28,284 nucleotides of DNA, taken from NCBI GenBank assembly GCA_039802265.1, contig JBDRWI010000028.1:1-28284 (forward strand). Reading direction: 5' to 3'. The DNA comes from a candidate division WOR-3 bacterium (lineage in GTDB: Bacteria; Hydrothermota; Tepidihabitantia; SM23-42; JAOAFX01). Of the stretch, positions 1-12,671 are shown one piece after another (the first letter of the stretch is position 1; the number at the start of each line of letters is the position of its first letter). The notes under the pieces are model-generated. The model saw nothing but the letters and a program-made list of their open reading frames with translations, searched no databases and was not told the DNA's origin. The translations under genes and the position numbers were made by a program.

Positions 1-127
1 TAAAATAATAATAAAGCGATTAAAGCGGGGGATAAAACGATGGAGGTAATAAAAAAATGAGCGCTTCGCAAATGACGGAAAATGCGGTGTTTCGGAATTT
101 CCGAACACCCACTTCTTGATAAAGGAG

Positions 128-1354
128 TCAACTATGAAGAATTGGCGCGGGAATTGGAGGTAATTCAGGATGACGAATATCAGAGAAGGTAATTTTTCGG
201 GTAAGCAAGGTATAGAGGACACGCAGGAGTTTATTTGCTGTAGCAATTATGGCTTTTTTGGCTTTCATTCCTTGTTTCTTCTTTCGTTCATAGTAGATAC
301 GAAACATCTGGGTATAGAGGATAGTGCCGATGGTCATTTGGTAGATAGTTCGTCTGAGATGTCGGTTGCCCCGCTTAGAGATTCTGTATTGACCTTTGAA
401 TTTTCCGGATTCCTGAATGATTGGGTCTATTCCGCTGGCAGCGATGATTTTCTTGGGGCTATTCATAGTAGCAATAGTGGGAATCTCGGTGATGAAGTTA
501 GCTGCTGTAAGTTCACCAATTCCTGGGATAGATGTGATGATTTCCATTGCTTCAGAGTAGTTGGCCTTGGCTTTGTCAATGAACTTTGGTTTGAGCCGAG
601 CCAATTCTTCTTGCAGGTGGAAGAGTCTTTTGATGCAGCTTCTAAGGATTTCTTCCTGGTTTGGGTCATCGATGCTGATAGTGTTATGGATGATTTCCAT
701 GATTTCGCTGGTGGTAAATGGTATTTTTCGGCCCCTTCTGTGGGTGATTTTTCTGATTATGCTGGTGATTTCTGCTTCGGTCAATTCTTTAGCTCGACGT
801 GTGGAGGGGACTTCAAGGAGGAATTCAAGGATTGTCTGGGTGAGGATGTTGTATCTGTGTGCCAGTTCATTGAAGATATTGAAGGTGATTTGTTTGATTC
901 TGGTTTTGAGTTTAGCGATTTCTTGGGCGAGGATTTCGCATTCGCGTGCCAGGAGTTTTGTGGTATCGTCTTGGGTGTGGTTTATGATTTTAGTGGGGTT
1001 TTTGAGGAGGTAGAGGGCGATTATTTTTGCCGAGATTTTGTCGGTTTTGGTTTTTCTAAGGGTGTTGCTTTGGAGGAATTTTTTGGTAATCAAGGGGTTG
1101 ATGAGGGTAATGTTATAGGTTTTGGTCTTCAGGAAGTTGAGGATGTTGATGTGGTAGTTGCCTGTGGATTCGATGCCGATAGCGATTTTTTGGGGATTGC
1201 CGATGGTTTGGAGGAGGGTGAGGATTTCATTAAATCCTTCTTTGGTTTGTGGGAATCTTTTTTGATTGATGATGTTTTCCTCTGTATCAATAATACAGAG
1301 GTCCAGGGTATTAAGGGATGCATCTATGCCGATGAAGTATTTAAAGTTAGGCAT
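128..1354 (-). CDS. IS110-family transposase/recombinase (408 aa)
   Basis: Motifs FIGID, GIESTGNYH, KTD, SIPGIG, GIDP..QESG, ISKRGNRHLR and ANKLLR. SD GAAAGGAG lies 8 nt upstream. Confidence 0.95.
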   Translation of the reverse strand: MPNFKYFIGIDASLNTLDLCIIDTEENIINQKRFPQTKEGFNEILTLLQTIGNPQKIAIGIESTGNYHINILNFLKTKTYNITLINPLITKKFLQSNTLRKTKTDKISAKIIALYLLKNPTKIINHTQDDTTKLLARECEILAQEIAKLKTRIKQITFNIFNELAHRYNILTQTILEFLLEVPSTRRAKELTEAEITSIIRKITHRRGRKIPFTTSEIMEIIHNTISIDDPNQEEILRSCIKRLFHLQEELARLKPKFIDKAKANYSEAMEIITSIPGIGELTAANFITEIPTIATMNSPKKIIAASGIDPIIQESGKFKGQYRISKRGNRHLRRTIYQMTIGTILYTQMFRIYYERKKKQGMKAKKAIIATANKLLRVLYTLLTRKITFSDIRHPELPPIPAPILHS

Positions 1355-1591
1355 GGGTTAAGCTCCTTTCCCGCTGTTAGCGGATTAAAGATTGGAAACA
1401 GGATGCTTTCTCTTCCATCCTCCATGTTGATACGGGATCTATGTCCCAACCAACCTATAGGGAATGGAGAAAGCGGGGGACAGACTCCTTTACGGGCTCG
1501 TAGCCCCGGAGTTATGTCGTCCCCCTGTTTCCAATTCTTTGGTTCCATTGATTCATTAATCATAACTAAATTATATCCGAATTCAACATAG
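170..1591 (+). CDS. Antisense ORF spanning the IS (473 aa), possibly analogous to IS900 hed
   Basis: Stop-free across both the transposase, in codon register, and the non-coding region. GGAGG at 156-160 precedes the ATG, and the TAG overlaps the SD of the gene at 1600. No recognisable protein family. Confidence 0.35.
   Translation: MTNIREGNFSGKQGIEDTQEFICCSNYGFFGFHSLFLLSFIVDTKHLGIEDSADGHLVDSSSEMSVAPLRDSVLTFEFSGFLNDWVYSAGSDDFLGAIHSSNSGNLGDEVSCCKFTNSWDRCDDFHCFRVVGLGFVNELWFEPSQFFLQVEESFDAASKDFFLVWVIDADSVMDDFHDFAGGKWYFSAPSVGDFSDYAGDFCFGQFFSSTCGGDFKEEFKDCLGEDVVSVCQFIEDIEGDLFDSGFEFSDFLGEDFAFACQEFCGIVLGVVYDFSGVFEEVEGDYFCRDFVGFGFSKGVALEEFFGNQGVDEGNVIGFGLQEVEDVDVVVACGFDADSDFLGIADGLEEGEDFIKSFFGLWESFLIDDVFLCINNTEVQGIKGCIYADEVFKVRHGLSSFPAVSGLKIGNRMLSLPSSMLIRDLCPNQPIGNGESGGQTPLRARSPGVMSSPCFQFFGSIDSLIITKLYPNST
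1360..1563 (-). ncRNA. IS110 bridge RNA with target-binding and donor-binding loops
   Basis: Closing stem 1387-1402/1524-1540. Target loop: stem 1475-1481/1519-1525, guides 1508-1516 (identical to 1594-1602) and 1485-1492 (reverse complement of 120-127). Donor loop: stem 1411-1420/1461-1470, guide 1424-1430 (reverse complement of 1583-1589). RNA ends are approximate. Confidence 0.8.
1570..1575 (-). promoter_or_regulatory. -10 box (TATAAT) of the circle-junction promoter for the bridge RNA and transposase
   Basis: Joining the IS ends at AGGAG gives TTGACT (131-126)-N17-TATAAT. Confidence 0.7.
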
Positions 1592-1599
1592 GAGGAGTT

Positions 1600-3804
1600 A
1601 TGGTTAAGTTTTTTCTTTCCCTGGTTCTTTTATGCGCCATTGGCTGGGCACAGAGCGGGCAGGTGATTCTCCCCAAACCCGCCAATACGGATAACAAAAT
1701 CTGCTGTGGCCGGCCGGTAAAGCCCTCAGAGGTAAGACCGGAAAAGATTGAAACCGAGCCAGGACCTCAACAGAAGTTGAGCGAGGGCTGGGCACTTGTG
1801 ATAATAAAGGCAGAAGACCCCCTGACAATGAATGCCATATTGGATAGATTACAGAAGAATGGAGTTAATACCAATGGTCTGCGCTGGCCACCCCATTGTG
1901 CCTTAATCAGGGCAACAAAAGAGGATGAGACAAAGATTCTCCAAACCGAAGGGATTGAAGCAATATATTTTGAACCGGTGAAGCCCGAAGACATACCATA
2001 TAAAGACGATCTGACCAATACCGCAATAAATTACTGGAATAGACTGCTCAGCGGTGAATTTGATGAGAGCATCCCGGTTCCCGGTCTTGAGCCACCCAAG
2101 AATGATATGCTCATTCCACCTCAGAATTACCGGTATCAATCAGATTATATGTTTGGTACTGTTGCCACCTGCATCTTCTTTCCGGAAAGCAATGGCTCAA
2201 TTGACCCGAATCTGGAGAACTGGACAACCACACTCCGGGATAATGTTATCAATGAAGTCTCCGCTGGACTTCAACGCTGGGTTACCTGGGCAAGCAATGA
2301 GGTCCCTTCAATCAGTCTGAGTTTTTCGCTTTATTACTATGACTACACCCAACTCCCAACTGGCTATGAACCGATATCCCGGCCACAATCTGACGAAGGT
2401 CTATGGATAAACGATTGTATGAATGCCATCGGTGCGCCCGCCGGCAGTTATTTTAGCCGGGTAAGCTGGTTTAATGATTGGTTGCGCAGCAATTACGGAA
2501 CCGATTGGGCACATTCAATCTTTGTTGCCAATTCATTAAATGATCCCGACGGTTGCTTTGCAGATGGTTACTCTGCCTATGCTTATCTTGGTGGGCCATT
2601 TCTGGTGATGACCTATGACAATGATGGCTATGGTATCGGTAATATGGACTGGGTGTGTGCCCATGAGACCGGTCATAACTTCTATGCCTTTGATGAATAT
2701 TCTTCTTCGGGTTGTACCTGCACTCAATCCCATAATGGCTACGAGAATCAAAACTGTGCCAATAATTGTGCTACAAATAATACCTGTGTAATGAGAAACG
2801 CCCTTGAGACACCGGTAGAGTATTATTCAAAGGGCCATATCGGTTGGGATCCGGGAGTCTATACATTAAGTGATGACGTAACCCAGTCACTGGGTTATCC
2901 TTATCCCAAGGCGCGGAAATATCAATACAATCAATCAGTGGTCTACTGGGCAGCAACGGGTGTCCGTCCTAATTCAGGTTCCGACTGGGATATAAGGCTA
3001 TATTCGGACACCGGATTTGGCACTCAACTGGCATATTCGGCCTACGGGGGCACGGCTGTTGACTTTGTTGTCGCAGACTACAATCATTCGCCAACCGGTG
3101 TGGATGCAATCTATGTCTCACGCTATTCAGGGACGAGCGGGGCAACCGTTGAATATGAAGATGGGACCGAGTCGTTCTCTTATCCAAACTCTTATTCAAC
3201 AACCTGGGATGCAGGTGATGTGGTTGAAATCTTTGACTATTATGTTGGAAGTGCACCGATCAATCTTAACTTCAAACTTGATATCACCTCGGGTAGTGCT
3301 GATCTGGGATTTGGTCTTTTCAAATCTAATGGTTCTTCTTATTATGCCGGCAGGTCAGGTATGGTGGCCTATGCGGATGCCAATGGTGCCGGTGGTGATG
3401 AGACATTCGACTATAATGTCACGGCAAATGACTGGTATGGTATTATTGTCTGGGCAAATAATACCGCGTCAGCCAGTTATACCCTGATTATAGGTCAGGT
3501 GGAAATTGCAGAACAGAGTGAAATGGGAATTGAACGAGAACCCAAGCTCGTTGTCAAGCCAAATCCCTGCAAGGAAAATCCACTTATCAGATGGAATTTA
3601 ATTTCGTCCAATAAAGTTCCAAGTTTAAGGATATTTGATACTACAGGGAAGTTGATAAAGGAATTTAAGATTAGAGAAAGTAGAGCAAAATCGGTATGGG
3701 ACCTTAAAGATAAATATGGGAAAAGGGTTTCCGATGGTATCTACTTCGTCTGTCTTGAAGATGGTGGGGAGAGAACAATTGAGAAGTTGATAGTTGTGAA
3801 ATAA
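1600..3804 (+). CDS. Secreted zinc metalloprotease with beta-sandwich domains and a T9SS-type C-terminal sorting domain
   Basis: Signal peptide, HETGHNFYAFDEY zinc motif and a downstream CVM Met-turn. C-terminal domain reads KPNP...IFDTTGKLIK...WDLKD...GIYFV...KLIVVK. Confidence 0.8.
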   Translation: MVKFFLSLVLLCAIGWAQSGQVILPKPANTDNKICCGRPVKPSEVRPEKIETEPGPQQKLSEGWALVIIKAEDPLTMNAILDRLQKNGVNTNGLRWPPHCALIRATKEDETKILQTEGIEAIYFEPVKPEDIPYKDDLTNTAINYWNRLLSGEFDESIPVPGLEPPKNDMLIPPQNYRYQSDYMFGTVATCIFFPESNGSIDPNLENWTTTLRDNVINEVSAGLQRWVTWASNEVPSISLSFSLYYYDYTQLPTGYEPISRPQSDEGLWINDCMNAIGAPAGSYFSRVSWFNDWLRSNYGTDWAHSIFVANSLNDPDGCFADGYSAYAYLGGPFLVMTYDNDGYGIGNMDWVCAHETGHNFYAFDEYSSSGCTCTQSHNGYENQNCANNCATNNTCVMRNALETPVEYYSKGHIGWDPGVYTLSDDVTQSLGYPYPKARKYQYNQSVVYWAATGVRPNSGSDWDIRLYSDTGFGTQLAYSAYGGTAVDFVVADYNHSPTGVDAIYVSRYSGTSGATVEYEDGTESFSYPNSYSTTWDAGDVVEIFDYYVGSAPINLNFKLDITSGSADLGFGLFKSNGSSYYAGRSGMVAYADANGAGGDETFDYNVTANDWYGIIVWANNTASASYTLIIGQVEIAEQSEMGIEREPKLVVKPNPCKENPLIRWNLISSNKVPSLRIFDTTGKLIKEFKIRESRAKSVWDLKDKYGKRVSDGIYFVCLEDGGERTIEKLIVVK

Positions 3805-11369: not shown

Positions 11370-12671
11370 ATGAAGAAGGTAAAAAAGACCAAAATGGTCA
11401 AAAAGGCCAAAAAAGCCAAAACCGTTAAAAAGGCAAAGGTTATTAAGGCAAAACCAGTCAGTGAAAAGCCAAAGTTTCCCGAGCCCATTGTAAAGGCAAT
11501 GGAGCATTTCGGAGGTATCCTTGAAAAACAATTAAAAAGGGTAGAGGCAATTAAAAAGGCTGAAGACTGGATTGATTATCAAAAATTGAAACCCATTATC
11601 ATCGGTGTAATCGGTGGTGATGGGATTGGCCCATATATTACCGGTGAAGCCCAGCGGGTATTGGAGCATCTGTTGAAAGATGAGGTGGCGAAAGGCAAGG
11701 TTGAATTTCGTACAATTGAAGGTTGCACGATTGAACGGCGGGCAGAGGTAATGAAGCCAATCCCGGATGATGTCCTGGAAGAGATTAAAAAATGTCATGT
11801 ATTATTAAAAGGTCCAACCACAACCCCAAAGAAGGGAGACCCCTGGCCCAATATTGAGAGTGCCAATGTGGCAATAAGAAAGGAACTTGATCTGTTTGCC
11901 AATGTCCGGCCGGTGCGCGTTCCCTCCCAGGGCATTGACTGGATATTCTTCCGTGAAAATACGGAGGATGTCTATGCGCTTGGTCCTTTCGGCATTGAGG
12001 TCACCCCGGAACTGGCAATAGACTTCAAGATGATCACCAGACCTGGAAGTGAACGAATTATCAGACTGGCATTTGAGCATGCCAAAAGAAACAACAAAAC
12101 AAGGGTTACCGCGGTCACCAAGGCAAATGTGGTAAAGACAACCGATGGATTGTTTCTTAAGACATTCTATGAAATTGCCAAGGAATATCCAGGAATAAAT
12201 GCCGATGACTGGTTCATTGATATTATGACCGCAAAATTGGTTGATACAAAGCGCCGCACTGAATTTCAGGTCCTTGTCCTGCCCAATCTCTATGGCGATA
12301 TACTTACCGACGAGGCTGCGGAATTCCAGGGTGGTGTAGGAACGGCCGGCAGCGCCAATATTGGTAAGCGTTATGCGATGTTTGAGGCAATTCACGGCTC
12401 CGCCCCAAGAATGGTTCAGGAAGGAAGAACCCAGTATGCCGACCCCTCCAGCGTGATTCGTGCTGGCGCGATGCTTTTGAATCATATTGGCTATGTGGAA
12501 TTGGGCAAAAAACTTGAGATGGCACTGGATATCTGTGGCCAATATGAGAGGAAACTTGTAATGACCGGAAGGGCAACCGGTGCCACCGGCCGTGATTTCT
12601 GCAATTATATCCTTGAAACGATGGAAGACCCGAACCTGGAAAACCGCTGGAACGAATACCAGAAGAGATAG
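11370..12671 (+). CDS. icd: Isocitrate dehydrogenase (IDH/IPMDH family) with a Lys-rich N-terminal extension
   Basis: GDGIG, KGPTTTP..SANVAIR, RENTE, KANV, NLYGDI and FEAIHGSAP motifs, plus operon context. Confidence 0.8.
   Translation: MKKVKKTKMVKKAKKAKTVKKAKVIKAKPVSEKPKFPEPIVKAMEHFGGILEKQLKRVEAIKKAEDWIDYQKLKPIIIGVIGGDGIGPYITGEAQRVLEHLLKDEVAKGKVEFRTIEGCTIERRAEVMKPIPDDVLEEIKKCHVLLKGPTTTPKKGDPWPNIESANVAIRKELDLFANVRPVRVPSQGIDWIFFRENTEDVYALGPFGIEVTPELAIDFKMITRPGSERIIRLAFEHAKRNNKTRVTAVTKANVVKTTDGLFLKTFYEIAKEYPGINADDWFIDIMTAKLVDTKRRTEFQVLVLPNLYGDILTDEAAEFQGGVGTAGSANIGKRYAMFEAIHGSAPRMVQEGRTQYADPSSVIRAGAMLLNHIGYVELGKKLEMALDICGQYERKLVMTGRATGATGRDFCNYILETMEDPNLENRWNEYQKR

Follow-up and report, generated by a model that had tools for sequence, protein, structure and literature searches.

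An IS110-type element in front of a host gene

The window, by which we mean the whole stretch of 28,284 nucleotides (nt) analysed here, is positions 1-28,284 of the plus strand of contig JBDRWI010000028.1 (assembly GCA_039802265.1) from a candidate division WOR-3 bacterium. Near its left end lies an insertion element of the IS110 type (128-1594, about 1.46 kb), whose transposase gene is on the minus strand, antisense to the direction of the host genes, and whose plus strand carries an open reading frame (ORF) of 473 codons in codon register with the transposase. It is this antisense frame that concerns us. In what follows, C4, C12, C83 and the like are contigs of the window's own genome (G000), and L-numbers denote the IS110 relatives with which the element was compared.

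To the left of the element, a host leader that is a copy of a dispersed repeat (1-127, plus strand) ends in the Shine-Dalgarno (SD) sequence AAAGGAG (121-127); to its right, a host gene for a protein of 734 amino acids (aa) with a secretion C-terminal sorting domain begins at ATG 1600 (1600-3804, plus strand). The relatives are alike from 128 to 1594 and unlike outside those limits. Left junctions read ...AGGAG joined to TCAACTATG and right junctions ...CATAG joined to GAGG, and throughout the close clade the host start codon lies 8-9 nt past the right junction. The trinucleotide GAG (125-127, and again 1592-1594, plus strand) is common to both junctions and contains an AG core, which is CT on the transposase strand. 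By the same comparison of junctions the element has no long terminal inverted repeats and no target duplication, but this shared core and a short subterminal repeat, with a left arm CTATG (132-136, plus strand) and a right arm CATAG that overlaps the rebuilt SD AGGAGG (1590-1595), arm and SD together spanning 1587-1595 (plus strand).

The left arm is the source of an ATG at 134, which faces the host SD and opens a 9-codon upstream ORF (uORF) closed by TAA 161-163 (134-163, plus strand; TGA or TAG is the stop in relatives). An element-borne SD, GGAGGT (156-161, plus strand), lies inside the tail of the transposase gene and would serve the long frame, which runs from ATG170 to the TAG at 1589-1591 given by the right arm (170-1591, plus strand); internal SD and ATG170 are conserved in position across the clade. 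The terminal TAG overlaps AGGAGG 1590-1595, 8 nt upstream of the host ATG. The initial annotation had set out the host SD, the two ORFs with their starts and the stop lying over the downstream SD, and all of these coordinates hold. All three plus-strand frames close between about 35 nt before and 20 nt after ATG170 (stops at 135/171, 161 and 190), so that the site offers a possible restart to ribosomes that began at the host SD or in an overlapping gene upstream. Since ATG134 and TAG1589 both belong to the recombination end repeats, start and stop come free, and selection would be needed only for the frame between them.

The transposase (128-1354, minus strand; 408 aa) has both IS110 domains, PF01548 (RuvC-like, E 1.7e-26) and PF02371 (Tnp, E 9.7e-21), each above cut-off, and its gene has an SD at 1363-1369 (minus strand). 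Its DEDD tetrad is incomplete: D11, E62, D105 and the conserved S275 are present, and Ser108 replaces the fourth Asp. Serine stands at this position (codon 108, window 1031-1033 on the minus strand) in 9/9 close copies (L039-L060); 120 homologues were examined, and of the 100 in which the motif was found, 97 have Asp. Near-identical copies at several sites suggest that the variant enzyme is still mobile. Recombinase, predicted guide RNA (the bridge RNA described below) and open opposite frame are thus carried in one stretch of 1.46 kb.

Selection on the antisense frame

Over 128-1595 the antisense frame contains 2 stops, as against 20 and 64 in the other two plus-strand frames. The initial annotation had counted by hand 38 Leu and 16 Ser codons beneath the ORF, in register and free of TTA, CTA and TCA, and the count is exact; the sole such codon of the transposase is codon 398. 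With host codon usage 15.7 of them would be expected (P 1e-8.1), with the element's own third-position use 16.8 (P 1e-10.2), and under a conservative null that takes account of TpA and CpA 6.7 (P 1e-3.2). About 3% of resamples leave the 234-nt non-coding end without a stop. Among the 1087 ORFs of at least 250 aa in the genome the element has the lowest rate of these three codons (median 0.043 per codon), and the next-best genuine host gene, which is in the same window, has a run of 287 codons. Elsewhere in the window, an isocitrate/isopropylmalate dehydrogenase-family gene (11370-12671) has 3 TTA, CTA or TCA codons in 433, the second-lowest rate of the genome, and a 245-aa antisense ORF at 11805-12542.

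The same frame is found in relatives. All five unbroken full-length ones (L039, L040, L055, L056 and L057; 69-75% identity) carry a single frame, 450-479 codons long, with the same TAG; of the remaining three close copies, L058 has lost both frames to a frameshift, L059, a partial copy, is open, and L060 carries a single real internal stop. The scattered antisense stops that the initial annotation named as a refutation are therefore not what the close relatives show. Four-fold degenerate sites are 40-60% diverged between most pairs of the clade, so the open frame is not a matter of mere descent. Across the eight close copies, 5 Leu and Ser codons end in A and 137 in G, whereas in the other four-fold boxes A outnumbers G by 225 to 48; in three distant frame-bearing elements the A:G counts are 0:19 for Leu/Ser and 60:34 elsewhere, and in a frame-less sister clade they are 49:30 and 58:33. 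Codon bias, which had been raised at the outset as a possible sufficient cause, thus fails in two ways, by the nulls given above and by this A-to-G reversal in Leu and Ser.

We surveyed a panel of 121 non-redundant IS110 genes, from which hits shorter than 240 codons and near-duplicates had been removed. Ninety-seven have less than 50% guanine plus cytosine (GC). Eleven of these, one of them the window's, show no more than one in-register antisense stop, and each of the eleven has an SD at a visible junction; the other 86 have 7-40 stops (median 18). Among the 19 with 60% GC or more, 13 likewise show no more than one stop, with no link to an SD. In a FastTree tree of 73 rows, in which several branches (the 36-50% homologues P0003-P0120) are without DNA and L043 is a long branch, the trait is found in the clade of the window element and in L136/L137 and L043; it also turns up separately in L048 (27% identity), next to a sister with 12 stops. 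Branches with the frame surround the frame-less clade, an arrangement that suggests loss. Plasmid and phage searches returned relatives at 24-32% identity only, and a search for the junction pattern gave extra junctions and no further frame-bearing element.

Several of these relatives differ in ways worth recording. L048 (G093:C59), at an SD, carries an antisense frame of 543 codons, which stops some 10 nt short of the SD, and its strand skew is near-identical. L026 (G010:C6) has a different left end, with a uORF in another frame that overlaps the start of the long frame. L016 (G024:C99) and a joint of 273 to 1296 in the public run X1 are internal deletions with both ends kept; L016 lacks the uORF stop and the internal start, and its left-end ATG opens the long frame directly. 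We considered L016 as a test of selection on the frame in an element without transposase, but its deletion is out of frame and gives no support. The frame-less L133 and L135 have long in-register open stretches near the right end (173 and 115 codons), possibly the remnants of a decaying frame.

What has been kept appears to be the frame and not its product. In 11/11 close copies the length of the non-coding end is divisible by 3, with five lengths represented (168, 228, 237, 252 and 255 nt); in the frame-less clade this holds for two of four lengths. A copy that is 99.6% identical to the window's has a 3-nt insertion in the non-coding end, and TGA in place of the uORF TAA. In L056/L057 the loss of one base and the gain of another rewrite about 22 residues, after which the frame is restored. 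At 0.70 transposase identity the antisense peptides are about 0.50 identical, while the frame-less clade gives about 0.46; the two groups are alike in four-fold divergence (0.44-0.47 with the frame, 0.44-0.49 without). From the frame-keeping indels, the compensated frameshift and the lack of excess peptide conservation we infer that it is the frame that is selected, not the peptide. The antisense product is acidic and rich in Phe and Gly, and there may be a weak constraint on its composition.

Insertion sites and the predicted bridge RNA

Bases 1-127 of the window are identical to C4:78-204, the empty form of what we call site A, where the SD continues into another gene. The sequence upstream of the gene at 1600 is found instead at the end of C12 (site B), with 99 identical bases and a canonical promoter whose -10 box is 19 nt before the ATG. 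In run X1 the depth of the element contig is roughly double that of the downstream gene (24 versus 11). For these reasons the flank left of the element most likely comes from site A and the flank right of it from site B, the two having been put together in the contig either by collapse of two copies or by recombination. The host SD that faces ATG134 in the initial annotation is indeed present; as the SD of the gene at 1600 it does not stand, since it belongs to the C4 gene and the gene at 1600 has its own on C12. This copy is not one clean insertion, but both sites are SD-ATG signals and so the argument is unaffected. The stretch, whole or in part, is present in 9 public hot-spring runs of 3 studies, and the contigs of 4 runs were compared; near-identical copies occur at other SD sites in such runs.

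The dispersed repeat of window 1-127 is also on C4, C47, C8, C21, C31, C6 and C72, and has hairpins. In most copies an SD and the start of a gene come no more than about 10 nt after its 3' end (…CACCCAC). Longer copies contain a decayed reading frame that we take to resemble a DUF559-type nuclease, and the repeat may be a second element sitting just upstream of ribosome-binding sites.

On the transposase strand the non-coding end of the IS110 element folds into a closing stem and two arms (1394-1532, minus strand; fold z -5.4), with a consensus drawn from 9 copies, and we predict this to be a bridge RNA with target-binding and donor-binding loops. The two-arm layout matches that given for IS110-group bridge RNAs in the available text of PMC11208160. 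Only 3 of 69 pairs covary, and the region has no Rfam match. The left target guide (1507-1516, minus strand) would correspond to the SD-to-ATG spacer plus the start codon and matches window 1595-1602 at 8/8 positions, and the right target guide (1485-1491, minus strand) is AAAGGAG, the SD itself with the core. As predicted, then, the target guide spells SD, spacer and ATG. At 11 sites, guide and site agree at 27 of 44 variable spacer positions, as against 16.7 after permutation (p 2e-4); two of the rows counted share one guide, and three close-clade sites without a guide call were excluded. Candidate donor guides, read by eye, lie within 1420-1456 (minus strand), the left at 1448-1456 with G-T/U-G wobble and the right at about 1420-1425. 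A 79-aa minus-strand ORF over the same region (1324-1563) was considered as a gene and rejected, as it is broken in L055 and shifted in L056/L057.

Proposed translation through the insert, rival explanations and known systems

The account we favour, with fair though far from complete confidence, is that the frame is a translated pass-through that prevents polarity on the host gene behind the insert. The predicted guide would send the element into the AGG-AG-G of host SD sites, and insertion would set the host start codon 1.46 kb apart from the promoter or upstream gene before it. Ribosomes entering at the left end in any frame would stop near the element-borne SD and ATG, begin the long frame there, span the whole insert and finish on the rebuilt host SD. 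The purpose would be the act of translation and not the peptide; translation would protect the host's RNA against Rho and terminator-like hairpins, and probably against decay, and insertion would be cheap for the host. Pass-through of host transcription and translation had been proposed in the initial annotation; its core, selection on the frame, has stood, and selection on frame and not peptide fits it. ATG134 is in itself no evidence of translation, because it is an arm of the end repeat and frame-less relatives have it too.

Several properties of the host and the insert are in keeping with this account. In coupled bacteria Rho terminates untranslated RNA, according to the available text of PMC7858274 and PMC13323073. 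The host genome has Rho, two terminator-like sites lie inside the antisense frame, and several relatives are within 70 nt of an upstream gene on the same strand. In a rough scan of 1350 gene ends, terminator-like hairpins more than 12 nt past the stop numbered 38, against 10 in controls inside genes, and those at 12 nt or less numbered 16 against 18. A mark of 12 nt is reportedly that used by Johnson in 2020 to tell coupled from runaway spacing, and by this rough measure the host's terminator spacing resembles that of coupled species. An outward promoter driving the downstream gene was also looked for: a scan of 1-1700 gave 3 promoter-like sites where 2.4 are expected, one of them on the plus strand (1266-1294, 9/12), which lends such a promoter no support.

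A number of observations weigh against translated pass-through. The frame is optional, for an SD-targeting element can spread without it: about a dozen SD-junction IS110s (read by eye) have 8-32 antisense stops, among them the frame-less sister clade, which has the same left junction and up to 13 junction matches in one complete genome. We also rejected ATG134 as a start under selection: it belongs to the end repeat and occurs in frame-less relatives as well, where a stop follows within 1-4 codons. The variants of the uORF stop are all single transitions and hence modest evidence. The real internal stop of L060 is one case among eight close relatives. The relatives are kin and not independent, so that p-values describe patterns and not independent trials. 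In L136, L137 and L043 the frame ends 30-60 nt before the rebuilt SD, from which a strict coupling of stop and SD would not be general; this favours a role in covering the insert over one of exact coupling. L060 with its internal stop and L136 and L137 with the frame kept all come from a phylum sample in which Rho polarity should matter least. A junk peptide of 473 aa carries a cost. The C-poor strand, finally, gives weak support only as a specific avoidance of Rho. The plus strand of the element (526 T, 408 G, 310 A, 220 C) has the G/T-rich, C-poor composition described initially, and the close clade and L048 lead the panel in G-over-C skew (0.22-0.37). This skew is not specific to the element: an unrelated 406-aa transposase-like gene at C83:7023-8243 (minus strand), presumably of IS91 type by its motifs, has the same C-rich, G-poor coding strand (skew 0.35) together with 12 in-register antisense stops, and in L136, L137 and L043 the frame is present but the skew is not.

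The loss of the frame may have to do with the host. Several frame-less SD-junction elements are from a Thermotogota sample (drawn around G271), and there the purine fraction of the host strand is 0.51-0.59, against a comparison range of 0.47-0.51. Other frame-less elements are on viral contigs and are like Bacillus plasmid elements in identity and range, by which we infer their host. Thermotogota and Bacillota are classed as runaway phyla in the available text of PMC13323073. Runaway expression in the host would explain loss of the frame, and L060, the one close copy with an internal stop, is from the Thermotogota sample too. This is a lead only, since that sample also includes L136 and L137, in which the frame is kept.

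Of the rival explanations, the one that survives best, although we think it unlikely, is that the frame serves the element's control of itself: translation would sustain host transcription antisense to the transposase and bridge RNA, which would silence the integrated copy through collisions or duplex RNA, and the sparing of the host would be a side effect. The frame does lie antisense to both the transposase and the predicted bridge RNA, and the frame of the distant members stops short of the host SD. Moreover, when the ends are joined in silico a strong sigma-70 promoter sequence arises that would exist in the circle only, with TTGACT (126-131, minus strand) as -35 box, a 17-nt spacer and TATAAT (1570-1575, minus strand) as -10 box; it is found in the window element and 5 of 6 close relatives, with an 18-nt spacer in L040. 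The circle joint was not found among the contigs of the 4 public runs, and contigs drop rare forms. On the other hand, the integrated copy is already without its -35 box, and in 11/11 close copies the non-coding end preserves the frame right up to the stop that lies on the rebuilt SD, a precision that silencing would not require.

Somewhat less probable again is a functional protein, like the Hed of IS900, made whenever the target gene is expressed. Such a protein would account for the frame's own SD and ATG at a position conserved across the clade and for the consistently acidic composition; gene callers list the antisense ORF, which is longer than the transposase, as a protein in public sets (5 members in a 90% cluster), and the available text of PMC8141618 treats IS900 hed as a gene whose function is unknown. 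Yet the peptide is hardly more conserved than the translation of the same strand where no frame is kept, at equal four-fold divergence, the compensated frameshift is tolerated, and the peptide has no Pfam match and an ESM Atlas model with a predicted local distance difference test score (pLDDT) of 0.26 and a best feature score of 0.77. Very improbable, and largely refuted, is a by-product, passed on by descent, of TpA avoidance and of third positions rich in C, for which speak a third-position C fraction (C3) of 0.43, the highest in the genome, the modest conservative null for this copy taken alone, the open high-GC IS110s without an SD link and the 287-codon run of a host gene, but against which stand the confinement of the A-to-G reversal to the Leu and Ser boxes, the frame in L136, L137 and L043, which are rich in third-position T, and in L040 (C3 0.26), the 12 stops of the equally skewed C83 transposase, the diverged four-fold sites of the clade and the frame-preserving indels of the non-coding end.

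Translated pass-through can be extended, as a tentative proposition that we hold with some doubt, to IS110s that target ribosome-binding sites at large. In these a sequence-free 'ribosome escort' frame may have arisen on two or more occasions, built from transposase codon choice, in-frame indels in the guide-RNA gene and an ATG and stop from the end repeats, which would be kept where expression is coupled and would decay in runaway hosts that rely on a purine-rich, C-poor strand. If this is true, the element records its host's mode of gene expression, and hed, an ORF known for 30 years, would be a polarity shield and not a gene.

Insertion habit and antisense frame are known in kind from IS900 of Mycobacterium avium subsp. 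paratuberculosis. By their descriptions, IS900 and the window element share the IS110 family, a translation-initiation signal as target (PMC2942039 places the insertions of IS900 and IS901 between the SD and the start codon) and an opposite-strand ORF spanning the element, which in IS900 is hed ('host expression dependent'); the available text of PMC8141618 gives hed no ribosome-binding site or start of its own and calls its function unknown. The window frame, in contrast, has GGAGGT at 156-161 and ATG170 behind the 9-codon uORF, and although we regard it as hed-like in its working we do not class it as hed. IS900 is from a high-GC host, in which open antisense frames are cheap, whereas the window element has 42% GC and selection can be measured; here the evidence points to a frame rather than a protein. 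The frame-less SD-targeting IS110s (L133, L135, L147 and others) share with the window element the left junction, the guide logic and the rebuilt SD at the far end, and differ in their 8-32 antisense stops. With IS621 and the IS110-group bridge recombinases, as far as the available text of PMC11208160 describes them, the element shares PF01548 and PF02371, a long non-coding left end with a two-loop RNA (here predicted), a CT core, a sigma-70 promoter sequence at the junction, a short end repeat and guides matching target and donor (here predicted, those for the donor as candidates). It is unlike IS621 in that its predicted guide spells SD, spacer and start codon, in the Ser at the fourth Asp position, and in the opposite strand, which is open even across the predicted bridge RNA gene.

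Within a limited coverage of the literature we found no published test of an anti-polarity role for such frames, and the available portions of PMC12892987 and 10.64898/2026.10.21.760802 hold nothing on one. Translated pass-through offers a testable answer to the role of hed-type antisense ORFs, called unknown in 2021 (available text of PMC8141618), and shows how an element can occupy the front of expressed genes, with a target in every operon, at little cost; it is also a hint for making bridge-recombinase insertions non-polar, and the antisense frame in public protein sets is a likely source of mis-annotation. What differs from IS900 is the low GC, at which selection becomes measurable, the evidence in favour of the frame over its peptide, the element-borne restart behind a uORF and a patchy distribution of the frame that may follow the host's mode of expression.

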